Shown here: one piece after another, positions 2,300 through 20,543 of the stretch
Layout: each line of letters opens with the position of its first letter
Numbering within the stretch: position 1 is the stretch's first letter
Assembly: GCA_043803745.1 (NCBI GenBank)
Contig: JAZDJS010000049.1
Location: 1 to 64,000, forward strand
From: an archaeon
Lineage (GTDB): Archaea; SpSt-1190; DYHY01
DNA: 64,000 nucleotides
Direction: 5' to 3'
Position numbers and translations under genes: made by a program
The notes under the pieces: generated by a model
Seen by the model: only the letters and a program-made list of their open reading frames with translations
What the model was told of the DNA's origin: nothing
Databases searched by the model: none

Positions 2300-4465
2300 G
2301 TGACTGGGCTGCAAGCAAAAATACCCGGAAATGTCCTTGACGTTTTCGGGGGAAGGGGGCGCCTTGAAAAACTCTATCCCCCCCAGCTCGAGTCCCTGAA
2401 ATCCGGGCTTTTCCAGGGGAAGAACATTCTCCTCTGCACGGGAACCGGGAGCGGGAAAACCCTTGTTGCCGAGCTTGCGGCGCTGAAGACGGTTCTTTCG
2501 GGAAAGAAGGTAGTTTACATAACCCCTCTTCGAGCCCTTTCCGGGGAGAAATACGAGGAGTTCAAGGGCAAGTACGGGGGAAAATTCAAAATCTCCCTCA
2601 GCATCGGGGGGCTTGACAAGAACGGCCGCTGGCTTTCTGGAAGCGACATAATATTCCTGACAACCGAAAAGCTTGACGCGCTGATGAGGCATAGGGCTGA
2701 GTGGCTGGGAGAAATCGGGCTTCTCGTAGCCGATGAAATACACGAAATCGGGGGCTCGCGGGGGCCGACACTTGAAATGGTCATAGTCAAGATCCGGAGG
2801 CTCGTGCCTTCGGCACAGATACTCGCCCTTTCGGCAACGGTTGGGAATGCGGGAGAGCTTGCCGACTGGCTCGGCGCGAAGCTGGTTGAAAGCAGCTTCC
2901 GCCCCGTCCCCCTCAAGGAAGGGGTTATCTGCGGAAGGAAGATAGTTTTCAAGGATGAGGGGGAAAGGCACATCAGGAAACCCGGGGCGGAGGGCGCCGT
3001 TCTCGACTGCCTTGAAGGGGGGAGCCAGGCCCTTGTTTTCAACAACACGAGGAGGAGCTCGGAGAAGACTGCGGAGGAGCTCGCCGAAATAACCGATGCG
3101 TTCCTCCGCAATCCAGATCGGGAATCCCTCAAGGAAACCTCGAAAAAAATACTTGACGCGCTTCCGTCCCCGACCGCCCAGTGCGAAAAGCTTGCCGGGC
3201 TTGTCCTGAAGGGCGCCGCATTCCACCATGCCGGGCTTGTCCATGGGCAGAAACTCCTTGTTGAGGAATGTTTCCGTTCCGGGAAAATAAAGGCGCTTTC
3301 GGCAACGGTCACGCTTGTGGCCGGAATGAACCTTCCGGCGAGGAGGATTGTGATAAAGGGCCTTGTCGGATGGGGCGACGGGGGCCCGAGGGAGTGGCCG
3401 GTTTCCCTTTACAAGCAGGCGGTCGGAAGGGCGGGAAGGCCCGGACTTGACAGCATTGGGGAAAGCCTTGTTGTTGCGAGGGATGAGGCTGCGCTTGAGG
3501 ATGTTTTCGAGAATTACATCCGCGGAAAGCCGGAGGAGGTTTCCTCCCTTCTAGGAAGCCCGCCAATACTCCGGAGGGAAATTTTGGGGGCAATTTCGGC
3601 CGGCTTTGTGAAGAACCTTGGCGGACTCGTTTCGTTCTTCGAGGAAACCTTCTACGCCCACAGGAACGGGGGCGTCGGAAGAATCCGGGAAACGCTAGTC
3701 TCGGCGCTCGAGGAGCTTGACGCCTGGGGGTTTGTGAAATATTCCGGGGCTGAGAGAAAAAGCCGGGGGGGCTTCCTCGAGCTTTCGGAATTGGTCGGAG
3801 CCCCGGAAGCTTCCGAAGGGGAGATTTCACTTACGAAACTCGGGCAACGAGTTTCGGAGCTTTATCTCGACCCTCTTAGCGCAAAGGAGCTTGTCGAGGG
3901 GCTGAAGGCCGGCAACCCGGGGACGTTCAATTATCTCGTTCTCCTTGCCTCGACAACCGAACTCATGCCGGGGCCCTCCGTGCGGGTCGCGGAAAGGGAG
4001 GGGATATGGACAAGGATTGCCGGGGAAAAGCTTAGCGGAGCTCCGGAACCCTGGGAGCCTGAAGCGGAAGTTTTCGCGAAATCAGTGAAGCTTGCGATTG
4101 CGCTCGAGGCATGGATAGGGGAGATTTCCGACAGGGAGATAATGGAACGGTTCAGCATTGCCCCGGGGGACTTGAGAAGCCGGCTTGTCAATTCGGACTG
4201 GGTGTGCTACTCGGCAGCCGAGCTTGCGAAAATCTGCGGGCTTGCCGAGGCGCGCTCCGAGCTTGCGAAACTCCAGATTAGGCTCGAGCACGGGATAAAG
4301 GAGGAACTCATCTCCCTGATTAAGCTCCCCGGAATCGGGAGGGTGAGGGCGCGCAAGCTTTTCGCAGCCGGGCTCAAGAACCCGTCGGCGGTCCTTAACA
4401 CTAAAAAGGAACGGCTTGCTGCAATTGTCGGGGAGAAGACTGCCGAGAAGCTCCTGTCAACTTAA
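2300..4465 (+). CDS. hel308: Ski2-like DNA helicase Hel308/Hjm
   Basis: TGSGKT, DEIH, LSAT, AFHHAGL, GRAGRPG, C-terminal HhH GIGRVRARKL. Confidence 0.93.
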   Translation: MTGLQAKIPGNVLDVFGGRGRLEKLYPPQLESLKSGLFQGKNILLCTGTGSGKTLVAELAALKTVLSGKKVVYITPLRALSGEKYEEFKGKYGGKFKISLSIGGLDKNGRWLSGSDIIFLTTEKLDALMRHRAEWLGEIGLLVADEIHEIGGSRGPTLEMVIVKIRRLVPSAQILALSATVGNAGELADWLGAKLVESSFRPVPLKEGVICGRKIVFKDEGERHIRKPGAEGAVLDCLEGGSQALVFNNTRRSSEKTAEELAEITDAFLRNPDRESLKETSKKILDALPSPTAQCEKLAGLVLKGAAFHHAGLVHGQKLLVEECFRSGKIKALSATVTLVAGMNLPARRIVIKGLVGWGDGGPREWPVSLYKQAVGRAGRPGLDSIGESLVVARDEAALEDVFENYIRGKPEEVSSLLGSPPILRREILGAISAGFVKNLGGLVSFFEETFYAHRNGGVGRIRETLVSALEELDAWGFVKYSGAERKSRGGFLELSELVGAPEASEGEISLTKLGQRVSELYLDPLSAKELVEGLKAGNPGTFNYLVLLASTTELMPGPSVRVAEREGIWTRIAGEKLSGAPEPWEPEAEVFAKSVKLAIALEAWIGEISDREIMERFSIAPGDLRSRLVNSDWVCYSAAELAKICGLAEARSELAKLQIRLEHGIKEELISLIKLPGIGRVRARKLFAAGLKNPSAVLNTKKERLAAIVGEKTAEKLLST

Positions 4466-5274
4466 GAAAGGGCGGCTTCCTTCGGGAAGATTTCCCTGAG
4501 GGTTATCTCGAAGACGAGCGCCTGCCCCGCAAGGGGATGGTTCGCGTCAAGGGTCAGGGTCATCTCCTCGCCCGCCGGGAAAACCCGGGCAACCACTGCT
4601 GAAAGCCCGCTTGGGAAAATCAGGGTTTCCCCCACTTCCGGCTGAAGCTCGAAAAGGGCGAAGCTTGAGTTTATGTCAGCGAGAACTGCCGCACCGTAGA
4701 CTGTGTAGACGACCGTGCCCATGGTTTCGTTTATCCCGTTTTTCTGCAGCTCGGAATAGGGTATTGTCGTGTATTTCGGTATTGTCACGTTCTGCACCAG
4801 TGACTGCTGCGGATACCCATACGCATCCTCGGGAGGAATCCTGACCGTCTTCTTCTCGCCGACCCTCATCCCCTTGATCGCATTGTCGAATCCGGGAATC
4901 ACCGCTCCCGAACCGAGGGCGAACTGCATTGGCTCGTATGTCCTGGCCGAGTCGTATAGTCCGGATTCCTTTGCCTCAGCCTCGATGCTTGTGTCGAAAG
5001 CTTCCCCGTTCTCGAACCTTCCGACATAATCGACTGAGACCAAGTCCCCTGCCTTCGCCCCGGACCCCGTCACCAGCGGCCCAAGGGCGAAATATGCGAA
5101 AAGGACTGCGAAGCAAGCAATGAAGATCGCGGAGGCAACGCCCAGAGGGGTTTTCAAAAATGGCAATCTCGTTCCCTTCTGAACTTGAAGGCCTGACGAA
5201 AGTTTCTTGCTTTCGGGCTTGATCTTCTTTAATGCCGCGGAAGCGTGACTGATGCGGGATTTTTTCCTTGCCAT
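4462..5274 (-). CDS. Membrane-anchored FKBP-type peptidyl-prolyl isomerase (SlyD-like)
   Basis: VDYVGRFENGEAFDTS, VIPGFDNAIKGM.VGE, IPPEDAYG, DANHPLAG; likely start MARKK at 5274 (longer ORF overlaps minD). Confidence 0.88.
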   Translation of the reverse strand: MARKKSRISHASAALKKIKPESKKLSSGLQVQKGTRLPFLKTPLGVASAIFIACFAVLFAYFALGPLVTGSGAKAGDLVSVDYVGRFENGEAFDTSIEAEAKESGLYDSARTYEPMQFALGSGAVIPGFDNAIKGMRVGEKKTVRIPPEDAYGYPQQSLVQNVTIPKYTTIPYSELQKNGINETMGTVVYTVYGAAVLADINSSFALFELQPEVGETLIFPSGLSAVVARVFPAGEEMTLTLDANHPLAGQALVFEITLREIFPKEAALS

Positions 5275-5362
5275 TCCGGGCGCGCTCAATTCCGGTTTAT
5301 AACACTTACAACAGTTACAAAAACGAAATAACATATTTAAGGCGGGGCTGCGGGCTCCCCAC

Positions 5363-6127
5363 ATGACCAGAAGAATCGCAATTGTCTCAGGCAAAGGCGG
5401 CGTCGGGAAGACCACGACCGCCGCAAACCTTGCAATCTGCCTTGCCCAGTTCGGGCGCGACGTAACCCTTGTCGACGCCAATTTCACGACGCCGGACCTT
5501 ACGATGCATTTCGGGACGCCCGTCGGGACTCCGACGCTCCACCACATAATGGCCGGGGAATACACGGTCGACCAGTCAATACACACGCACATTTCCGGGC
5601 TCAAGTTCATACCTGCAAGCATTGCGATAAGCGACATGAAGAAGAGGAGATATCACCGCCTTGAGAAGATAGTCGAGAAGCTGAAGGGGGATTACGTGAT
5701 TCTCGACACCCAGGCCGGGCTTTCAAGCGAAGTCCTCTCGGTAATTGCGGCCTCGGACGAGGTCCTTGTCGTGACGAATCCGGAATGGCCCGCAATAACC
5801 GACGCGCTCAAGACGATAATACTTGCGAAGGAATATGGCGCGCACATAACCGGGGTCGTCCTCAACCGGGTGACCAACTCGAAGATAGAGCCTAACATGA
5901 AGGGGCTTGAGACAATACTTGAGACCAACATTGTCGCGATAATACCCGAGGACAGGGAGGCGAAAGAAGCGATAGCCAACAAGAATCCGATCGTGATTTC
6001 CTCCCCGAATGCGGATTCCGCAATCGCATACAAGCAGCTTGCCGCGAACATTGCGGCAGTGCCCTACAAGGCTCCGGGAAAGTTCAGCAGGCGCATGGCG
6101 CGGCTTTTCGGGAAAATATTCGGGTGA
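5363..6127 (+). CDS. minD: MinD/ParA family ATPase
   Basis: Deviant Walker A SGKGGVGKTT; C-terminal amphipathic helix FSRRMARLFGKIFG. Confidence 0.9.
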   Translation: MTRRIAIVSGKGGVGKTTTAANLAICLAQFGRDVTLVDANFTTPDLTMHFGTPVGTPTLHHIMAGEYTVDQSIHTHISGLKFIPASIAISDMKKRRYHRLEKIVEKLKGDYVILDTQAGLSSEVLSVIAASDEVLVVTNPEWPAITDALKTIILAKEYGAHITGVVLNRVTNSKIEPNMKGLETILETNIVAIIPEDREAKEAIANKNPIVISSPNADSAIAYKQLAANIAAVPYKAPGKFSRRMARLFGKIFG

Positions 6128-6139
6128 GGAAAAACCAAG

Positions 6140-6778
6140 TTGCCAGCAAGAAAGAAGGTTTCTGCGGGAATGAGGAGAAAGGACGACAGGGCCCTTACGG
6201 CTTCCGAGCTTTACAGGGAGTTTGGGGCTGCGCCCCCGGAAAGGAAAATGGGCTTTCTCCGGACAGTGCGGCAAGTCCTTTTCTTCCCGGACCATTTCTT
6301 CCAGCAGGTTGAACGGATTCCCGTTCCGCAGGCGTTCGGGCATCTGCTGAAAATCGCGCTGTTCCCCGGTCTCTGGATGCTTGTTGCCCAGTTCGCATTC
6401 GGCGGGGGGTTTGCGGCATCCGCAAAGGCGGGCGCGTCAACATATTTGGGCGTCATCATCTCCGCGATATTCTCGGCCGGAATAGTCCACCTTGCGGTCA
6501 AGCTTGCGGGCGGGAAGAAGAACGTTGGCGAGACTTTCAAGGTAGCGTCTTTCGCGGGAACGCCATGGTTCGTCCTTTCCCCGTCGCTCATACCCTCGAT
6601 ATTCGGCCTAATCTGGGCAGTCTATCTCCAGACAATCGGGCTTGCCGCAAGCCAGAGAATAGGAAAGCTCCCTGCTTTTTTCGCGACAATTCTGCCCATT
6701 TTGGTTTGGATAGGGATTGTGGCCTACGTCGTGATTACCTATCCCGAAAAAGTCCTGGAAATCCTTGGCGGGGCGTAG
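6140..6778 (+). CDS. YIP1-family multi-pass membrane protein
   Basis: VLFFP..FF, HL.VKL.GGK..ETFKV..FA.TP; about 5 TMs. Confidence 0.7.
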   Translation: MPARKKVSAGMRRKDDRALTASELYREFGAAPPERKMGFLRTVRQVLFFPDHFFQQVERIPVPQAFGHLLKIALFPGLWMLVAQFAFGGGFAASAKAGASTYLGVIISAIFSAGIVHLAVKLAGGKKNVGETFKVASFAGTPWFVLSPSLIPSIFGLIWAVYLQTIGLAASQRIGKLPAFFATILPILVWIGIVAYVVITYPEKVLEILGGA

Positions 6779-6866
6779 TCTCTCTGGATGAACCCGAAGC
6801 CTTCGGGCCTTCGGGAAAACGCGCCGTCTTTGCATTCGGCCCGACGATGCATGCCGAGGGGAAAAT

Positions 6867-8705
6867 TCAGTCCTTTAAGATGAACTCGCCAATCCTCTTT
6901 CGGGCGGCTTCGCGCGCAGCCTGATGCTTCGCGAGGAACTCGGAAAGCTTGTCAACAAGGAGCTGCTTCATCTCCCCGGTGAGGAGCTTGCCGCTCCGGT
7001 AATTGTCGTGGATTTGCTTGAGCCGCGAATCTGATTCCTCGAAGAAGGTCAGGTATTGGTAGGGGACATCAATGTCCGGGTTCCCGCCGAGTTTCCTGTG
7101 TTCCTCGACTGTCGGCTGCCCCCCGGAGAAAGCATATTTCATTATTTTCGCGCGTATTTCCTTCGGCGAGTCCGTCGTGTAAATCGCGGCGCCCTCGGAA
7201 GAGGACATCTTCCCTCCCTGTTCAAGCCCCGGAAGGAACCTGCAGTGTATTGCGGCGGGCTTTGGATAACCCAGCTTCGGCGCAACATCCCGGGCAACGC
7301 GCCAGTAGGGGTCCTGGTCAATTGCCGCGGGGATTAGGACGGGCACCTCTTTTCCCTCAAGGAAAGACGGGAGGAAACAGGGCGCAGCCTGCATTGCCGG
7401 GAAGAAGACTATGCCGATGTTGCTCTCGTTGGTGAATCCGAATGTTGCCTTGGCTGAGGAGAATGTGACTTTTTTCGAGACTCTTACCGCAAGGGGGTAG
7501 AGCGTCCGCGCATATTCAGTGTCAAGGAAAATCTTCGTTTTCTTCGGGTCAAAGCCAATTGCGATTATGTCAAGTATGTTCTCGTATGCGAGCTTTTTCG
7601 TCTCCTCTAGCGACAGGTCCTTCACAAGGTGCTTTTCGTCATCAGTTATCTCGAAATAGAGGTCGCAGCCGAACTTGTCCTGGAGCCATTTGCAGAAAAA
7701 CCAAGGTATGAGATGCCCGAGGTGCGTCTTGCCTGACGGGCCCCTTCCAGTGTAGAGGGCGAACTTCCCGCCCTTTTCATAGTGGTCCAAGAGGAGGTCA
7801 AGGTCCCGGTGGGAGAAGAAAATCTTCCTCCGGAGGAAATGATGGAGTTCGCCGCCGGTGTGCCTTTTCAGGCGAGCGAGGATTTTTTCGTCGAGGGGGT
7901 TTGTTCCGAACTGCTTGATTAGCTTGGAGTAGTCGACGTCGCCCCTGACTTCCCAGGGGGTCACTGTGAAACTCTCCTTCTTCGCAATCTCCTTGAAATT
8001 CTCGGGTGTCGGGGTCGCTACCAAGAACTCTGAAATTCTCGGCTTTTGCTCCGCCTCTGCAAAAAGGGCGGTCATGTCCTCTAAAGCTGCCTTGACGAAC
8101 TTCTCCGTATCTTCCGTCCCAAAGAACCAGAATATGAAAACGACTTCTTTTGTTTTCGGGGTTATTTTGTCGTAGCTTCCAGGCCCGTTCAGAAGGGAGA
8201 TTAGCACATTTTCACCATCGGAAAGGACGATGTCGTCTTCGACCAGGGTTTTCTTCGCGCCGGAAAGCGTCTCGTACGTAGCGCCCTTTTCGGAAAGGTT
8301 GAACGTCAGTGTGTTGTCTTTATGGGTTGAGATGTCGTGACAGGAAATCATGCATGCACCCTTCATCTCAAGATAGAAAAGCAAATCCTCGAGAAAGGTT
8401 TTTTCTCTTGGCGGGTTTTTTCCTTTGGCAACTGACTCTATTTGGAATTCTATCGGGACGCTTTTTCCGAACTTGGAGAAGAATTCCTTTCCGTGGGCAT
8501 CTGCTTGAGGGAAACTCTCCTTGGCTTCGACCCTTTTTTTCAGGCTTGCTGCAAGCGCTTTCTGGTATTTCTCCGGAACCCGAAGCTTTGTCGAATTGTC
8601 AATCCCCCCGACAAACATCGCTGCAAACTTCAACGAAGGGTATTTCTCCAAAAGCTCGGGCTTGACTGAAATTGAAACCGGAATTTTTGCGTCTTTGAAT
8701 GTCAT
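6867..8705 (-). CDS. trpS: Tryptophanyl-tRNA synthetase (archaeal/eukaryotic type) with N-terminal B3/B4-like domain
   Basis: VTPWEV, YTGRGPS, HLGH, AIDQDPY, KMSSS in the C-terminal ~370 aa; N-terminal ~240 aa resembles free-standing B3/B4 proteins. Confidence 0.93.
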   Translation of the reverse strand: MTFKDAKIPVSISVKPELLEKYPSLKFAAMFVGGIDNSTKLRVPEKYQKALAASLKKRVEAKESFPQADAHGKEFFSKFGKSVPIEFQIESVAKGKNPPREKTFLEDLLFYLEMKGACMISCHDISTHKDNTLTFNLSEKGATYETLSGAKKTLVEDDIVLSDGENVLISLLNGPGSYDKITPKTKEVVFIFWFFGTEDTEKFVKAALEDMTALFAEAEQKPRISEFLVATPTPENFKEIAKKESFTVTPWEVRGDVDYSKLIKQFGTNPLDEKILARLKRHTGGELHHFLRRKIFFSHRDLDLLLDHYEKGGKFALYTGRGPSGKTHLGHLIPWFFCKWLQDKFGCDLYFEITDDEKHLVKDLSLEETKKLAYENILDIIAIGFDPKKTKIFLDTEYARTLYPLAVRVSKKVTFSSAKATFGFTNESNIGIVFFPAMQAAPCFLPSFLEGKEVPVLIPAAIDQDPYWRVARDVAPKLGYPKPAAIHCRFLPGLEQGGKMSSSEGAAIYTTDSPKEIRAKIMKYAFSGGQPTVEEHRKLGGNPDIDVPYQYLTFFEESDSRLKQIHDNYRSGKLLTGEMKQLLVDKLSEFLAKHQAAREAARKRIGEFILKD

Positions 8706-8717
8706 TCCAATTGTTAA

Positions 8718-10028
8718 TCACCCCCGTTTCTTTATATTATCTGCTTTTGTCCGGCGCGTTTTGTCATATGCCGAAAGGTCCAGGAGGCCGTGGCCCGAGA
8801 GGTTGAAGAGGATCGCCCGTTCCCGGCCCCTGTTCTCCCTTGCAAGCCGGATTACCTGTGCGATTGCGTGCGCGCTCTCGGGGGCGGGGATTATCCCTTC
8901 AGCCCGGGTAAAAAGCTCGGCTGCACGGAAAGTCTCCGCTTCCCCGATTGAAACGGCCCGGGCAAAGCCCTCGGAAATTGCCTTCGAAAGGCTTGGGGCA
9001 AGCCCATGGTAGCGGAGGCCGCCGGCGTAGATTTGCGGGGGGATGAATCCCGAACCGAGGGTGTGCATTTTCAGGAGCGGCGTAGTCTTCGCAGAATCCC
9101 CGAAATCGTATTCGTATTTCCCCTTCCCGACTGAGGCGCATTCCTCCGGCTCGACAGCAACGAAATCGGCTTCGGGGAATTTCCGCATCAGGGGAAACGC
9201 TATTCCCGCGAAATTGCTCCCGCCGCCGATGCAGCCGACAACATGGTCCGGGGCTTCCCCGAACATCCTGAGCTGCTTTTCCGCCTCAAGCCCTATCACC
9301 GACTGGTGTATCATCACGTGATTGAGGACGCTTCCCAGGGCGTATTTCGCGGAGCCCCCGGATTTCGCAACGGTTTCGATTGCCTCGGATATCGCAATCC
9401 CAAGGGAGCCGGGATGTGCCGGGTTTTCCGAAAGCATCTGCCTCCCGAATTCCGTTTTTCCGGATGGTGAGGGAGATATTTCCGCGCCGTAGAGACCCAT
9501 TATGGTTTTCCTCCCGGGCTTTTGGTCATAGCTACACCTTACCATGAAAACCTCGCAGCCGATTCCCGCCCTTGCGCAGGCAAGGGAAAGAGCGGAGCCC
9601 CACTGGCCGGCCCCGGTTTCGGTCACAAGGGTTTTTACTCCCTCATCCCGGGCATAGATTGCCTGGGGTATTGCGGTGTTCACCTTATGGCTTCCTGTAG
9701 CTGTCATGTCCTCCCGCTTGAAGTAAATCCTGCATTTCGTCCTGAGGGCTTCCTCAAGCCCGAGCGCCCGCCTCATCGGCGTTGGCCGATTTATTGAATA
9801 GAGGGCGTCCCTGACCTCCCTGGGGATTTCTATCTTCCGCTTCCTTGAGAACTCGAGAGCAACCGCCGCCTTTGTGAAAAGGGGTAGAAGGGCCTCCGGA
9901 CCAAGGGGCTCCCCGGTCCCCGGATGCTTCGGCGGGGGCGTCCTTATGCTTCCGCAAAAGTTATGGTATTTTTTCGGGATGTTTCTCCTTCCAAGCCTCA
10001 CTTCCAACTGTTCGTTTCCTTTTTTCAT
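8718..10028 (-). CDS. trpB2: Tryptophan synthase beta-like PLP enzyme, TrpB2 type
   Basis: TGSHKVNTAIPQA (PLP Lys), ETGAGQWGSALS, GSLGIAISEA, AGGLRYHG, PAPESAHA, NLSGHGLLD. Confidence 0.93.
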   Translation of the reverse strand: MKKGNEQLEVRLGRRNIPKKYHNFCGSIRTPPPKHPGTGEPLGPEALLPLFTKAAVALEFSRKRKIEIPREVRDALYSINRPTPMRRALGLEEALRTKCRIYFKREDMTATGSHKVNTAIPQAIYARDEGVKTLVTETGAGQWGSALSLACARAGIGCEVFMVRCSYDQKPGRKTIMGLYGAEISPSPSGKTEFGRQMLSENPAHPGSLGIAISEAIETVAKSGGSAKYALGSVLNHVMIHQSVIGLEAEKQLRMFGEAPDHVVGCIGGGSNFAGIAFPLMRKFPEADFVAVEPEECASVGKGKYEYDFGDSAKTTPLLKMHTLGSGFIPPQIYAGGLRYHGLAPSLSKAISEGFARAVSIGEAETFRAAELFTRAEGIIPAPESAHAIAQVIRLARENRGRERAILFNLSGHGLLDLSAYDKTRRTKADNIKKRG

Positions 10029-10492
10029 TCCGTTCTTTCCTCATCTCCTTTTTTTTCGCTCATCCTAAGAATTTCCAAGGAGAATGAGACCGGCTCAAGA
10101 GCCGGATAGATGTGCCTGGTTGTTTTCGGGGGGAAGGTTTTCCCGGAAAGGGCTGCCGAGAAAACAAGCGCCTTTGGGAACTCTTTCGAAGGGTCTGAAA
10201 AGTGAATGACCCTTACTTGGGAATAGGAAACGAGGATTGCCGGGGCGAAAAAGCATCCGAGGGCGCGCAACGCGCCGGCGCGATGGTGCCCGTCGAGGAT
10301 TGCGCGGCTATGGGAGTCTATCAGGACCGGGGGGCCGAAGAAGCCTTTTTCGGAAATCGAGCGGACGAGCTCCCCGAGGGTTTCGGGAATTGTTCGCTCA
10401 TGCGGCTTTAGGTCTGAGATTGGGACTAGGCGAACTTCCCCAAAAACGACCACCACGCGTTTTACTATTTTCAGCCATTGGCTTGCATTCAC
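10025..10492 (-). CDS. ParB/Srx-fold protein resembling SerK/SbnI free-serine kinase (start uncertain)
   Basis: LKPHE, PVLID..S..ILDGHHR, PPKTTRH; stop overlaps trpB2 start (ATGA). Confidence 0.7.
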   Translation of the reverse strand: MNASQWLKIVKRVVVVFGEVRLVPISDLKPHERTIPETLGELVRSISEKGFFGPPVLIDSHSRAILDGHHRAGALRALGCFFAPAILVSYSQVRVIHFSDPSKEFPKALVFSAALSGKTFPPKTTRHIYPALEPVSFSLEILRMSEKKGDEERTE

Positions 10493-10512
10493 TCCCTTGT
10501 TGTTTCATCCTG

Positions 10513-10531
10513 AAAACAAAAACACAGAAAA
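10513..10531 (-). terminator. U-rich tract after leader hairpin (candidate attenuator terminator)
   Basis: Minus strand TTTTCTGTGTTTTTGTTTT immediately after the 9-bp stem AGACTGTCC/GGACAGTTT. Confidence 0.45.
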
Positions 10532-10554
10532 TCCAAACTGTCCGAACCGAGAAA

Positions 10555-10590
10555 CTACCAGCGCCAACGGGACAGTCTGCCTTGGTACAT
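10555..10590 (-). CDS. Putative TrpL-like leader peptide MYQGRLSRWRW*
   Basis: ATG TAC CAA GGC AGA CTG TCC CGT TGG CGC TGG TAG; two Trp codons among the last three; upstream of serK-like/trpB2/trpS. Confidence 0.65.
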   Translation of the reverse strand: MYQGRLSRWRW

Positions 10591-10611
10591 TGAAGGTTAC
10601 TTGCCGGAAAC

Positions 10612-10632
10612 TTCCTTATAACGGTTTTGTCA
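10612..10632 (-). promoter_or_regulatory. BRE/TATA promoter for the leader-trp operon
   Basis: Minus strand ACAAAACCG TTATAAGG, ending ~26 nt upstream of the leader ATG; implies a leaderless start. Confidence 0.55.
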
Positions 10633-10707
10633 CCGGCGGAAGTTTGTTTTCCCAAACGCCCCTTTTTCTCTTGAAAGAGAAAACGTCCCTTGGGGTAAAA
10701 AAGAGAA

Positions 10708-11577
10708 CTAATGCTTGCGGGAAAGGACAAGGAAGGTCCCTGCGCCGAGTATTATCGCTGCTCCGACTGATTGGACAAAATTGAATCCCTCCGCCAGAAT
10801 AAAGTGGCCGAGAAGGGCGGTTAGCACAGGGGTTATCATTGATATCATGGAAAAGGAGGTAACTTCAATGTTCTGTATTGCCTTGGTAATCAGGAGAACA
10901 CATACCACATTAAGGCATCCAGAAAGAACCACGAACGCGGGAGCTTCCAAAAGGAGCCCGCCACCGAGAAAAAGGTGGAGGACGACAAGCACCCCGGCGG
11001 AAAACAGCATCCTTCCCCAGGTTATGACATAGGTGCCAAATTTCCAAAAAGCCTTCTTCTGGTAAACGGTTGAAAAGGCGTAGAAAGCGGCTGCGCAAAG
11101 AATTAGAAAGTCCCCCGCCGCGGGGACGAACGCTTGGCCGCCGGTCGAGAGCAGGTAGATTCCGGAGAGGAACGCAACAATCAGGCCGGCAGTCCTCGGA
11201 CTGATTCGTTCCCTGAGGAGGAAAAATGAGAGAACCGGCACAAAAACAACTGTTGACTTTATGATGAACCCGTAATTTATTGCTGCGGAAACCTTCAAAC
11301 CCCAATTGGAAAATATGTTCCCAAAGGCGATCGCCCCTCCAAGAAACGCGAAGGGCAGGAAGTTCCCCTTGGAAAAAAAGGGCGCTTTTATTTTCCCCAT
11401 TGCCAACAGAGCGTAGAGAGTTGTCAGAACGGCAGACACTATCTGGACGTTGACCGAGTATGCCAAGGGGTTCTCAACCCCCCCGACCTTGAATGCAAGC
11501 TTGTCAATGAAAATGTTGAGCGCCCAGAATACTGAAAAAGCTAGGGAATACACTAGCCCCTTTCTCGAAGCTATCAT
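10708..11577 (-). CDS. DMT/EamA family transporter
   Basis: About 10 TMs, two EamA repeats (FFLLRERIS, GDFLIL.AA, FILAEGF). Confidence 0.85.
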   Translation of the reverse strand: MIASRKGLVYSLAFSVFWALNIFIDKLAFKVGGVENPLAYSVNVQIVSAVLTTLYALLAMGKIKAPFFSKGNFLPFAFLGGAIAFGNIFSNWGLKVSAAINYGFIIKSTVVFVPVLSFFLLRERISPRTAGLIVAFLSGIYLLSTGGQAFVPAAGDFLILCAAAFYAFSTVYQKKAFWKFGTYVITWGRMLFSAGVLVVLHLFLGGGLLLEAPAFVVLSGCLNVVCVLLITKAIQNIEVTSFSMISMITPVLTALLGHFILAEGFNFVQSVGAAIILGAGTFLVLSRKH

Positions 11578-11644
11578 TGCCTCTCAAACTCCCGAAAGCC
11601 CGGTTTAAAACGCTTTCAAGACGGAATTGTTTATTTACCCGTAA

Positions 11645-12685
<1,041 letters not shown>

Positions 12686-12689
12686 GAAA

Positions 12690-13907
12690 ATGCTGCTTGG
12701 AATGAAAACCCTTGACGATATCAACGTCGAGGAAAAGACGGTCCTCCTTCGGGTTGACATAAACTGCCCGACTGCGGAGGACGGCTCGCTGCTCGACGTA
12801 ACACGCATCAAAGCAATAGTCCCAACGGTCCAGGAGCTTTCGGAAAGGAACGCGAAGGTGGTCATACTCGCCCATCAGGGAAGAAATGGGAAACCCGATT
12901 GCACAAGCCTGAAGAACCATTCAAAGGCGTTAGCAAGCCTCCTCGGGGAAGAGGTCCTGTTCGTTGACAAGCCATCAGGACCGGACGCGCTTGCAGCAAT
13001 AAAGAAGGCTTCCTGGGGGGACGTCATTCTCCTTGAAAACCAGAGGTTCGACGAGGCTGAGCAGGAGGAAAAGACCCCCGACGAGCATGCGAACGACAAA
13101 ACCATTCTTGAATTGGCAAAGGCTTGCGACGTTTTCGTCAATGATGCATTCGCAGCAGCGCACAGGAGCCAGAGGTCGCTTGTCGGATTCTGCCCGATCA
13201 TGCCCTCCGCAATTGGAAGGGTGATGGAGGCGGAACTTGGCGCGCTTGAGAAAATAGCAAACCCGGAGAAGCCAGCCCTCTTCATTTTCGGGGGGGCCAA
13301 GCTTGACGGGATTGAGATTCTTGTGGGGAAACTCCTGGATTCCGGGCGGGCTGACAAGGTAATTGTGACCGGGCTTACCGGCCTTGCGTTCGTCCTTTCC
13401 TCCGGGCATTCCCTCGGCCCAACTGACGGGAAAATCCAGGGCGAACTTTCCCTTGAGGCAATGGCAAAGCTTGCGGAGCTTGTCGAGAAATATCCGATGA
13501 ATCTGCTTCTCCCGGCAGACCACCTTGCCGAGAAAGACGGAGCGCCCCTGATAGTCAAGCAAGTTCCGACCCCTTATCCTATCTACGACATCGGCCCCGA
13601 GGCGGCAAGCCAGTTCACTGCGGAAATCTCCCGGGCGAAGACTGTTTTCGTTAGCGGACCGGCGGGGTTCTTCGAGAGGGCGGGCTTTGGCGAGGGGACC
13701 AAGAAAATCCTGGAAGCGGCTGCGAACAGGACCGGCGAGGGCGCGCACACGGTGATTGGCGGGGGACATACAAACGCCGCGATTTCTAAGCTTGGGCTTG
13801 ACGGGAAGTTCTCGTACCAGAGCACCGGCGGCGGGGCGCTCGAGGCTTTCATAACCGGGGAGAAGCTGCCCGTTCTCGAAGCAATTAAGCATTCGTTCAA
13901 GGGCTGA
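12690..13907 (+). CDS. pgk: Phosphoglycerate kinase
   Basis: LLRVDIN.P, LAHQGR, LLEN.RF, VNDAFAAAHR, STGGGA; start ATG 12690. Confidence 0.95.
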   Translation: MLLGMKTLDDINVEEKTVLLRVDINCPTAEDGSLLDVTRIKAIVPTVQELSERNAKVVILAHQGRNGKPDCTSLKNHSKALASLLGEEVLFVDKPSGPDALAAIKKASWGDVILLENQRFDEAEQEEKTPDEHANDKTILELAKACDVFVNDAFAAAHRSQRSLVGFCPIMPSAIGRVMEAELGALEKIANPEKPALFIFGGAKLDGIEILVGKLLDSGRADKVIVTGLTGLAFVLSSGHSLGPTDGKIQGELSLEAMAKLAELVEKYPMNLLLPADHLAEKDGAPLIVKQVPTPYPIYDIGPEAASQFTAEISRAKTVFVSGPAGFFERAGFGEGTKKILEAAANRTGEGAHTVIGGGHTNAAISKLGLDGKFSYQSTGGGALEAFITGEKLPVLEAIKHSFKG

Positions 13908-13913
13908 TTGGAA

Positions 13914-14297
13914 ATGACCGCACCGATAAAACCGACAATTCCTTTCTCCGACCTTGAGAAAATAGATGTCAGGGTCGGGACAATAGAGGCAATCGAGGAT
14001 GTCGAAAAATCCGACAAACTCGTCCGGATGATTGTCGATTTCGGCGATCACAAGCGGAAAATACTCGTCGGAATGAAGAAGGAGAGACCCAATGTTTCCC
14101 CCGAGGACCCGCCGCTCAGGAGAATCCGGGACGAACTCCTTGGAAGGCAGGCGCTCTTCGTCGTCAACCTAGAACCGAGGAAAATAATGGGAGAGCTTTC
14201 CGAGGGGATGATTTTCGATATCGGATATGCCGACGGGCTCCTGCCCGTTCTCGCAGTCCCAGAAAAGCCGGTGCCTGCGGGCACGCGGGTCGGGTAG
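13914..14297 (+). CDS. tRNA-binding OB-fold protein (Trbp111/CsaA-like)
   Basis: IDVRVGTI, DFGD..RKIL.G, FVVNLEPRKIMGELSEGM. Confidence 0.85.
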   Translation: MTAPIKPTIPFSDLEKIDVRVGTIEAIEDVEKSDKLVRMIVDFGDHKRKILVGMKKERPNVSPEDPPLRRIRDELLGRQALFVVNLEPRKIMGELSEGMIFDIGYADGLLPVLAVPEKPVPAGTRVG

Positions 14298-18938: not shown

Positions 18939-19810
18939 TATAAAGCAAGTTCCGGAAAGAACAAAATGTCTGGCGTGAAGTTTCTGACATATCGGGCCTG
19001 GCTGTATTACCTTTCGACCAGTTCCCCCCCCCCCGTCGAAACTTAAACTGACTTTTTGGATCTTTTCCAGAAGCCTCCTCAGGCTTTTTCTGGGGATGGA
19101 AAAAACCGACTCTCTTTTGAAACATTTGGCGGAATTTGAAATAGAAACCAGAATAGGCAAGGCAAAATTCGTGAACACTTGTTTCGGAACGTTGAACCTC
19201 TGGGAACTTTTTTCTGGGGAGTTTTGCAGGGATGTTTCTCTGAGGCGCAAGGACGCAATAGTGCTCGACGTCGGAGCTAACTGGGGACTTTATTCTATAA
19301 AGGTCGCGGTGGCGAACCCTCAAGCCGAAATATATGCGTTTGAACCGGTAGGTTTCCTTTATTCAAAACTGAAAAAAAACATTGAAATTTCTGGAGCCAA
19401 AAACATAAGACCTTTCGAACTTGGTCTTGGAGACTTCAAAGGAAAAGCAAAGATACGTGACGACGGTTCTATTTTGAGCAAAGGTGCAGTCATAGAAACG
19501 GTGAAAATAGACTTGCTTGACAATTTCGTCTTGAAGAATAGAATAAATCGTGTCGATTATGTGAAAGTTGATATTGAGGGCGCGGAATACAAGTTTCTTC
19601 TTGGGGCGAAAAGATCGCTCAAAAAGTGGAAACCCTCACTGTCTATAGAGCTACACCCTTGGAATTGCAAAAATGTCGATGTGAAAATTTCAAAACTGTT
19701 GAGAACGCTAGGATATGAACACGTGTGGGTTCCGAAAGAAGACAAACGGCTCCTCAGAGCGGAGCCGAATTAGCCGCGTTTTTCCTCAAGTTGCCGCAAG
19801 CTGCGAGCAT
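18906..19810. repeat. 15-bp direct repeats (duplicated hypC 3' end) flanking the FkbM gene
   Basis: GCAAGCTGCGAGCAT at 18906-18920 and 19796-19810. Confidence 0.85.
18966..19773 (+). CDS. FkbM-family methyltransferase, frameshifted at a C11 tract (intact part 19096-19773)
   Basis: VLDVGANWG, AFEP, KVDIEGAE; ATG 18966 joins the main frame if C11 at 19024-19034 is C10. Confidence 0.8.
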
Positions 19811-19841
19811 AGCCACGGCAAGCACTAGCTGAATCCCCAAG

Positions 19842-20543
19842 TCAACCTAGGACTGCATCCAGATTCCGCCTATTGATTTTCTCAAGCAGCTTCGCCTGGC
19901 GCTTTGTCAGGATTTCCGCCGCAAAATTCCAGTGCAAGGCGAGATAATCCCCTTTCTCCGGGGCGCGCCCCAGGAATTCGGCGTCAATCTTCACATTGGT
20001 TTTCCGAAGCTTGCCGAACCTTCCGTTCTTCTCGACAAAGCGCCTTTCGGCAAATCCGTTCCCGAGATACCTTGCCGGGGAAATTATGCAGTTGTTCTCG
20101 GTTGCGCGGGTAGCCGGAACTGAGCCGGTTATCGTGTGTATGAAAAAGACGTGGAATGAGTGATGCGGCACAGCCGAAGCGGGAACTTTCGAAGCAAGGC
20201 TTTCGGCAATTCTCCTAGGGAGCCCCCGCTTGGAAAAGGTTCCCCTGATTAGATTGGAAAGTTCCGCTTGCCAGCTGCCCTCAATCAGCTTTCCCCCGGT
20301 GAAATGGGCGCGGACGACCTTTTCGTCAAGCGGGTCCCTTATTCCGCGGGCCCTGGAAATCATCCGCAGGTATGGATAGAGGGCTTCGAACCTTTCAAGG
20401 GCTTTCCTTACCTGGGGGGCGCCTTTTCCCGTACAAACAAAATTATACAAGGAATCTCCAGTCCCCTTCGGCCCGCAATAGCCAAGGCTGTTCGTGACAT
20501 AACCGTATCTTGCGGCAAGCAGGATTCCTTCCGAGTCTGACAT
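19842..20543 (-). CDS. DUF6390-like hydrogenase-associated protein
   Basis: ARYGY..NSLGYCGP, FE..YPYL..I, DPLD.KVV.A, PHHSFHV, GD.LALHW. Confidence 0.75.
   Translation of the reverse strand: MSDSEGILLAARYGYVTNSLGYCGPKGTGDSLYNFVCTGKGAPQVRKALERFEALYPYLRMISRARGIRDPLDEKVVRAHFTGGKLIEGSWQAELSNLIRGTFSKRGLPRRIAESLASKVPASAVPHHSFHVFFIHTITGSVPATRATENNCIISPARYLGNGFAERRFVEKNGRFGKLRKTNVKIDAEFLGRAPEKGDYLALHWNFAAEILTKRQAKLLEKINRRNLDAVLG

Follow-up and report, generated by a model that had tools for sequence, protein, structure and literature searches.

Three genes on the minus strand of an archaeal contig, serK1, trpB2 and trpS, probably encode a self-contained route from scavenged indole to charged tRNA-Trp. 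They occupy positions 6867 to 10492 of the 64,000 nt stretch analysed here, referred to throughout as the window (GTDB lineage Archaea; SpSt-1190; DYHY01; positions 1 to 64,000 of contig JAZDJS010000049.1, assembly GCA_043803745.1), and in the reading that we consider probable their products would convert serine to O-phosphoserine, phosphoserine plus indole to tryptophan, and tryptophan to Trp-tRNA. A first-pass annotation, made from the letters of the window alone, had proposed this same sequence of reactions, and it is now supported by the kinship of the predicted kinase with SerK and SbnI, by the conserved linkage of its gene to trpB2, and by the trp genes absent from the host assembly. The features in question are as follows.

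10025..10492, minus strand: serK1, encoding a 155 aa protein of ParB/Srx fold that we call mini-SerK, a predicted free L-serine kinase
8718..10028, minus strand: trpB2, encoding TrpB2, a stand-alone TrpB-like pyridoxal phosphate (PLP) enzyme of 436 aa
8706..8717, minus strand: trpB2-trpS spacer of 12 nt, in which GGGGTGA (Shine-Dalgarno-like) is read at the trpB2 end
6867..8705, minus strand: trpS open reading frame (ORF) of 612 aa, in two parts, an extension and tryptophanyl-tRNA synthetase (TrpRS) proper
7971..8705, minus strand: N-terminal extension of TrpRS (residues 1-245), of B3/4-like fold by a weak Pfam B3_4 match and an Atlas structure match
6867..7970, minus strand: catalytic and anticodon-binding part of TrpRS (residues 246-612), archaeal type (NF008927, TIGR00233)
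10493..10707, minus strand: intergenic region of 215 nt 5' of serK1, the likely place of the promoter
10708..11577, minus strand: EamA/DMT-family transporter gene (PF00892)

The co-orientation and tight coupling of the three minus-strand ORFs, first noticed in the initial annotation, are confirmed at these positions: the serK1 stop and the trpB2 ATG share 4 nt in an ATGA overlap read directly from the sequence, and the 12 nt gap before trpS carries its GGGGTGA. The genes probably form one transcription and translation unit, of which we infer the co-transcription part. The start of serK1 may be read in two ways, as a public protein collection holds a 142 aa version beginning at residue 14 (GTG at 10453), and the alignment of homologues begins no earlier than about residue 15.

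Kinship of the small protein

The product of 10025-10492 contains the three serine-kinase motifs named in the initial annotation, PHE (residues 30-32), DGHHR (67-71) and PPKTTRH (121-127), and the residues invariant in the mini-SerK family are H31, E32, D67, G68, H69, H70, R71, Y90, K107, P121, K123, T124, T125 and H127. Its top family match is SerK (NF053625, an NCBIfam equivalog; E 2.5e-11), with SbnI next. A phmmer search of PDB returned PF0380 (1vk1, E 1.9e-11), SerK (5x0b, 5.3e-10) and SbnI (1e-4); among the 8 matches at E <= 1 there is no ParB chain, all SerK, PF0380 and SbnI chains have E <= 2e-4, and the other match is a non-significant dihydroorotase (E 0.24). Mini-SerK aligns to SerK and PF0380 in two pieces, residues 21-92 with 19-94 and residues 107-133 with 205-231, the latter including PPKTTRH; because these pieces flank an unmatched SerK segment (~95-204), some 110 SerK residues are missing from the small protein. 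The Glu of the PHE motif, E32, corresponds to E30 of SerK, which has been mutated in the substrate-trapped entries 5x0e/g/j/k; the E30Q entry reads 'kphq' in place of the 'kphe' of SerK.

An AlphaFold2 (AF2) model of mini-SerK built on a 108-row alignment (pLDDT 89.6, pTM 0.81) gives the same ranking. Foldseek places SerK 5x0b first (E 3.8e-9, TMq 0.72), followed by 1vk1 and SbnI, and the modelled fold matches this group as a whole with E values of 4e-9 to 3e-7 and TMq of 0.66-0.72, against ~0.41 for ParB/Noc and 0.35-0.41 for sulfiredoxin. When 22 full-length forms are aligned with 4 mini forms, the invariant columns (H, E, G, H, R, Y, K, T) all fall in regions retained by the mini form: H-E in PHE, G-x-H-R in DGHHR, one Tyr, and K and T in PKTTRH. 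The inserted middle domain has 0 columns conserved at >= 70%. Because sequence, fold and invariant columns all match SerK and SbnI, the small protein is, on alignment and modelled structure, a shortened member of the wider kin of free serine kinases and not a ParB. Kinase activity, substrate and phosphate donor are predictions from this kinship.

The initial annotation had named grouping with DNA-binding ParB nucleases as one outcome that would undo its proposal, and in both phmmer and Foldseek the protein groups with SerK and SbnI instead. That it nevertheless binds DNA or acts as a nuclease in the manner of ParB, or regulates transcription of its own operon, as SbnI also regulates the sbn genes, is in our estimate very improbable; on that view its place next to trpB2 would reflect regulation. 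Such a role could be read from the weak ParB_N match (E 0.0093), from the NCBIfam name of SbnI ('bifunctional transcriptional regulator/O-phospho-L-serine synthase') and from the first description of PF0380 as a ParB-like nuclease, as given in the accessible part of PMC5120207. No helix-turn-helix, dimerisation or other second domain was detected in the 155 residues by Pfam and NCBIfam scans, however, and the ParB profile TIGR00180 yields 18.7 bits (cut-off 58.45); the TM of ~0.41 to ParB/Noc compares with 0.72 to SerK, the bacterial relatives of the pair are already under T-box leaders, and the linkage and fusion to CysK-type enzymes described below point to metabolism.

The family to which mini-SerK belongs is large and mostly short. 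HMMER over 1.84 billion representatives found 1369 family proteins with E <= 0.001, of which 390 reach E <= 1e-10; among 150 listed, 117 have at most 200 aa, 23 have 201-300 aa and 10 are longer. The spacing from DGHHR to KTTRH is 54-60 residues in short forms and fusions and 143-149 in the three 201-300 aa forms in which both motifs could be measured. In GTDB species genomes, a locus search with a 12-row alignment found 373 stretches that encode a mini-SerK relative, the best 80 of which come from archaea (Thermoproteota, Bathyarchaeia, Thermoplasmatota, Micrarchaeota, Brockarchaeota, Njordarchaeota) and bacteria (Bacillota, Caldisericota, Ignavibacteriota and several phyla of the candidate phyla radiation, CPR). 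On the tree of these loci the window copy has a long branch (1.89) and was not placed. Domain scans covered the ten longest representatives; two are fusions to CysK/M-type domains, P0178 (TIGR01136, 395.7 bits) and P0052, and none is a fusion to TrpB2. Longer members (P0049, P0050, P0051, P0054, P0061 and P0102; 455-649 aa) contain the core once or twice with adjoining regions that have no Pfam match, and in P0102 the core is joined to a gamma-carbonic-anhydrase/hexapeptide-repeat-like domain.

Gene neighbourhoods and the link to tryptophan

Neighbourhoods were compared in the best 80 of the 373 GTDB stretches, all from other genomes. Linkage to TrpB2 was counted by tblastn over all 80 loci, requiring >40% identity to window TrpB2 on the same strand, and CysK and SufS were counted in the 74 loci with ORFs called (all except L004, L015, L019, L027, L037 and L062). 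TrpB2 lies within ~600 nt of mini-serK on the same strand at 19 of the 80 loci, at 18 of them within 400 nt, and at 16 of the 61 loci flanked by 1.5 kb or more on each side; one more locus, L053, which is outside the 19, has a 29%-identical PALP gene 1.3 kb away. This linkage exceeds chance. The order is trpB2 then serK at 17 linked loci, and serK then trpB2 at L003, L069 and in the window. A maximum-likelihood tree was built from the 80 loci, and on it linkage to TrpB2 has to change state 7 times, with well-supported branches forcing at least 2 of these changes. A single clade (99/99) unites twelve bacterial rows, and the archaeal and CPR linked cases are scattered. The linked copy is the only mini-SerK at E <= 1e-10 in 18 of the 19 linked genomes.

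TrpB2 is not the only enzyme found in such neighbourhoods. A CysK/M-like PALP gene occurs no more than two genes from mini-serK at 13 of 74 loci, directly downstream (+1) at 12 of them, and a SufS cysteine desulfurase occurs within 3 genes at 10 of 74. No recurrent metabolic partner was seen in the remaining loci (e.g. pyrB/pyrI lies upstream in Thermoplasmatota). The CysK/M-like genes at L013 (6546-7805) and 12 other cluster members, from Thermoproteota and Caldisericota, encode proteins of ~390-420 aa in which the PALP domain begins near residue 117, after an N-terminal extension of ~115 residues. At L042 (3338-3943; Micrarchaeota) a PdxT-type (SNO) glutamine amidotransferase of PLP synthesis is located two genes upstream of trpB2/mini-serK.

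In bacteria the linked pair is tied to tryptophan by its leader. Rfam models place a full-length T-box directly 5' of trpB2 at 8 of 14 bacterial loci, with weak matches at two more. Three loci reach the Rfam gathering score (L039, L025, L066); under an E-value threshold five of seven further loci have full-length matches (E 1e-11 to 1e-17) and 2 have weak ones, and L050, L081, L002 and L010 have none at the gathering score, the sole threshold applied there. Three of the T-box alignments read GAA-UGG-A at the specifier, a position that follows our own reading of the T-box consensus, and since UGG is the tryptophan codon, the pair in these bacteria would be switched on by uncharged tRNA-Trp. The conservation of serK-trpB2 linkage that the first-pass annotation required is therefore present, and in bacteria it stands behind UGG T-box leaders. 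Window positions 4000-14000 contain no Rfam match at E <= 0.1, so that no T-box precedes serK1-trpB2, as expected because the host is an archaeon.

A second three-gene array, with trpS, was found at L045 (4708-7503), in the ~1.1 Mb genome of an uncultured archaeon that is unrelated to the host. It contains trpB2 (TIGR01415, 616.5 bits), a 129 aa mini-serK and trpS (TIGR00233, 233.9 bits) on one strand with gaps of 33 and 9 nt; its gene order, trpB2 then mini-serK then trpS, differs from that of the window, and its TrpRS is only 30% identical. TrpB-type enzymes accept other nucleophiles, and TrpB2 in this unit might use one of them with phosphoserine to make some other beta-substituted amino acid. 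A second function of TrpB2 had been proposed, according to the accessible part of Merkl 2007 (PMC1854888). Translational coupling to the sole TrpRS, here and in L045, together with the UGG-specifier T-box before the bacterial pair, makes a product other than tryptophan highly unlikely.

Matches to TrpA and IGPS are lacking in 17 of the 19 TrpB2-linked genomes. With no TrpA in those 17 genomes, their TrpB2 cannot be fed by TrpA.

Host genome and related species

The window enzymes themselves are assigned without difficulty. TrpB2 passes NF009057 (592.8 bits, cut-off 366) and TIGR01415 (550.9, cut-off 518.85) and stays below the TrpB1 cut-off (TIGR00263, 175.6 vs 392.45); its best PDB chains are 6hul_B (422 bits), 4qys_B (388) and 6hte_B (387) (Sulfolobus TrpB2), with TrpB1-type chains at no more than 142 bits. 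It is the sole TrpB-type gene of the assembly, and by analogy with studied TrpB2 enzymes it would be expected to prefer phosphoserine. TrpRS residues 243-611 pass NF008927 (530.7 bits, cut-off 478) and TIGR00233 (286.8, cut-off 176.75) and are of archaeal/eukaryotic type; this is the only TrpRS of the assembly, the second profile match being TyrRS.

This sole TrpRS also bears a 245-residue N-terminal extension, of B3/4-like (PheRS-editing-type) fold by Atlas structure comparison, that has no counterpart in the TrpRS of a species of the same genus (372 aa). The extension (residues 1-245) matches Pfam B3_4 (PF03483) at E 5e-5 with 23.4 bits, under the 29.3-bit cut-off, and its ESM Atlas model has a TM of 0.80 to free-standing B3/4-domain proteins and to the B3/4 parts of CPR ArgRS fusions; a single-sequence AF2 model has a pLDDT of 38.5, and no sequence relatives were detected among proteins of near length or shorter.

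The host assembly (1.23 Mb, 51 contigs, 90.02% complete, 0.6% contaminated) has no match to Trp_syntA (TrpA), IGPS, Chorismate_bind or PRAI. Its single Glycos_transf_3 match, the candidate for TrpD, is an AMP phosphorylase (TIGR03327, 560.6 vs a 535-bit cut-off). The absence of trpA, C, D, E and F, first noted within the window, thus extends across the whole assembly, trpG having had no separate search, and it fits indole salvage. No tryptophanase-type gene is present in the assembly: of two Beta_elim_lyase matches one exceeds the Pfam cut-off (36.3 bits), and the ORFs concerned are, by their NCBIfam names, a sugar aminotransferase and an alanine aminotransferase. The assembly likewise lacks SepRS and SerC, its Aminotran_5 matches being two SufS, one sugar aminotransferase and one alanine aminotransferase, and has no PGDH above cut-off (168 vs 454 bits).

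With no SerC and no above-cut-off PGDH, a serine kinase is the only evident source of phosphoserine in this genome. This counts against the possibility that mini-SerK runs in reverse (phosphoserine + nucleoside diphosphate (NDP) to serine + nucleoside triphosphate (NTP)), or acts on another hydroxy-amino acid, with TrpB2 using plain L-serine. A possible precedent for the reverse direction is 'SerBK', a distant SbnI-like family (DUF1015) that the accessible part of PMC13759103 proposes as a phosphoserine phosphatase substitute, but TrpB2 enzymes are themselves reported to use phosphoserine (PMC11917138, accessible part), and we regard the reverse reaction as quite unlikely.

PALP enzymes of the assembly number two: TrpB2, and a CysK/CBS-like gene truncated where contig C50 ends (19166-20079; L082). 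The assembly also contains a second mini-SerK paralog, serK2, which is 44% identical to the window copy and has its 5' end cut by the end of contig C13 (2796-3143; L100). In G003, a member of the same family, the orthologues of the CysK/CBS-like gene and serK2 (61% and 60% identical) stand side by side in one direction, ~100 nt apart (L101, 6487-7825). The ends of C50 and C13 share no overlap of 15-200 nt; judging from G003 synteny, an assembly break has most likely separated a cysK-like/serK2 pair in the host. If this pairing is true, the host has one mini-kinase per phosphoserine-type PLP enzyme.

A species of the same genus, G001, shares the gene order of the window, ParA/MinD through to GAPDH and PGK, and has a ~2.6 kb deletion relative to it (L102, contig C10, 8071-8660). 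There, serK1 is gone, trpB2 is reduced to a remnant of ~150 nt (residues 374-425, with one in-frame TGA) and EamA to one of 35-90 nt, while TrpRS has 372 aa, is 72% identical to window residues 246-612 and has no N-terminal extension. The trpB2 and EamA remnants indicate that the ancestor of the genus had both genes at this place and that G001 lost them by deletion; serK1 presumably stood between them in that ancestor. The B3/4-like domain may have been gained in the window lineage or lost in G001. No TrpB2 was found in other family, order or small-genome class relatives (0/16: G001-G016 minus G006 and G008, which are of 3.6-3.8 Mb). The comparison with G001 catches the module being lost in real time, marking it as a conditionally useful salvage trait.

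The EamA gene of the window is itself a clear family member (PF00892, 91.6 bits vs a cut-off of 28.2) on the same strand, 215 nt upstream of serK1. Its co-orientation, part of the initial annotation, stands, but the substrate-supply role suggested for it has no comparative support: an EamA homologue at E <= 1e-5 occurs at 0 of the 80 related loci. We accordingly rejected it as a member of the unit, and its membership in the transcription unit is doubtful. The genes on either side are ordinary: one flank (5363-6778, plus strand) has a ParA/MinD-type ATPase and a membrane protein with a Yip1 domain, and the other (11660-13907, plus strand) has GAPDH-like and phosphoglycerate-kinase-like ORFs, named by reading their translations.

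The proposed route and known systems

In the proposed route, mini-SerK would phosphorylate free L-serine to O-phospho-L-serine with a nucleotide donor, TrpB2 would join this to indole, acquired from a host or the environment, to form L-tryptophan, and the only TrpRS of the cell would charge tRNA-Trp with the product; the indole source would be external. As to the donor, SbnI reportedly uses ATP. For the Thermococcus kodakarensis enzyme, Tk-SerK, it is ADP (PMC5120207, accessible part). For the second step, the accessible part of PMC11917138, citing Busch 2014 and Hettwer & Sterner 2002, describes O-phospho-L-serine as the substrate that TrpB2 enzymes use and their affinity for indole as high.

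A number of observations weigh against this route. Mini-SerK is outside the SerK and SbnI families as curated, scoring 43.2 bits against the 380 of NF053625, with only profile positions 15-92 of 244 covered, and 23.3 against the 350 of NF033589 (SbnI); it also fails Pfam ParB_N (16.4 vs 26.3 bits), and the ~110-residue middle domain that it lacks is found in every characterised serine kinase. A SerK-like archaeal protein is reported to bind CTP and not ATP (PMC12704722, accessible part), so that ADP, ATP or CTP may serve as donor. The family is not beside TrpB2 at 61 of the 80 loci, and among the 61 well-flanked loci 31 lack a PLP enzyme in the vicinity. Lack of TrpA is not specific to the linked set, since 41 of 50 unlinked mini-SerK genomes are also without an above-cut-off TrpA (the unlinked search covered 50 loci, L070-L080, 11 in number, being left out); with TrpA above cut-off in 2 of 19 linked and 9 of 50 unlinked genomes, we rejected its absence as a discriminator. 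Three genomes in a sample of 41 from relatives (G027, G034, G038) have TrpB2 with neither TrpA nor a detectable mini-SerK, so the kinase is not obligatory for TrpB2. Finally, the genome absences are provisional because the assembly is 90% complete, and because the genome holds serK2 and a CysK/CBS-like enzyme, phosphoserine is probably not made for tryptophan alone.

Several of these points can be turned into the main competing explanation, that the small protein is no stand-alone kinase but assists or regulates fold-type-II PLP enzymes (TrpB2, CysK-type) as one of their subunits, for example as a nucleotide-sensing activator or as a half-enzyme that becomes active only when docked. The missing SerK/SbnI domain, the fusions to CysK/M-type domains and the apparent retention in the host of one paralog per PLP enzyme would all suit such a subunit. 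All kinase-invariant residues (the Glu equivalent to SerK E30, G-H-R and K-T-T-R-H) are strongly conserved, however, which is unexpected in a purely structural subunit, and the well-flanked loci with no PLP enzyme nearby also speak against it; we judge this explanation unlikely.

An elaboration that keeps the kinase, and to which we likewise assign a low probability, makes the mini-kinases obligate partners docked on their own synthases (serK1 with TrpB2, serK2 with the CysK-like enzyme), each synthase replacing the lost SerK domain and phosphoserine being channelled without a free pool. The mini form would then be the widespread ancestral core of free serine kinases, of which SerK and SbnI are later elaborations, and the B3/4 domain would clear tRNA-Trp charged with tryptophan analogues, because promiscuous TrpB salvage would also convert indole analogues. 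A complex prediction of TrpB2 with mini-SerK (score 0.00, mark 0.32) counts neither for nor against.

As a widespread 'second' tryptophan synthase TrpB2 has a history of two decades, and its dependence on phosphoserine has been known since 2014. Under the salvage route that we favour, a minimal serine kinase beside it provides a concrete two-enzyme path, from serine, NTP or NDP, and indole to tryptophan. If the mini form is active, the free-serine-kinase family would grow from a few thermophiles and staphylococci to hundreds of lineages, including DPANN and CPR; the minimal catalytic core of ParB/Srx-fold kinases would be defined; and tryptophan auxotrophy in reduced genomes would be rescored as dependence on indole instead of on tryptophan.

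SbnI (5uje, 5ujd, 6nr6; NF033589) has its fold and motifs in common with mini-SerK, but at 254 aa it has an extra domain and a regulatory role, and mini-SerK has no such domain. SbnI is said to supply phosphoserine to the PLP enzyme SbnA, encoded in the same staphyloferrin B cluster. SerK (T. kodakarensis TK0378; 5x0b, 5x0e-k; PF0380, 1vk1) is the closest known system, with the same ParB/Srx N-terminal core, the PHE and DG(H)HR motifs and a C-terminal P-K-T-T-R-H, in a protein of 242-244 aa that includes the middle domain, against 155 aa without it in the window. In Thermococcus it supplies phosphoserine to CysK, a fold-type-II PLP enzyme (PMC5120207, accessible part); the partner in the window is TrpB2 instead. 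The accessible part of the same paper states that SerK has no clear homologues outside Thermococcales and Desulfurococcales, unlike the mini family, whose 373 GTDB relatives are spread over many phyla of archaea and bacteria.

Single-domain ParB-CTPase-fold proteins and sulfiredoxin likewise comprise little more than the ParB/Srx nucleotide-binding fold, although the TM of sulfiredoxin to our model is only 0.35-0.41. A 2025 survey of the ParB-CTPase fold (PMC12704722) notes very short archaeal single-domain forms and, in its accessible part, does not connect them with PLP enzymes, TrpB2 or serine. Our search, which reached few subscription journals, found no literature linking TrpB2 to a serine kinase, and published TrpB2 work, in the portions seen, neither names a source of phosphoserine nor explains what TrpB2 does in genomes that have no other trp genes.

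With TrpB2 as described (4qys, 6hte, 6hul; Busch 2014, Hiyama 2014) the window enzyme agrees in passing the family cut-offs, and a role in indole salvage fits its TrpA-less genome. Merkl 2007, as far as its accessible part goes, detected no conserved trpB2 neighbourhood outside trp operons (PMC1854888). Unlike published TrpB2, that of the window has a kinase-like partner gene and is coupled to trpS. Apparently new here are the three-gene form with trpS, the second trpB2-serK-trpS cluster at L045, the serK2/CysK-like pairing, the loss in a same-genus species and the TrpRS extension.

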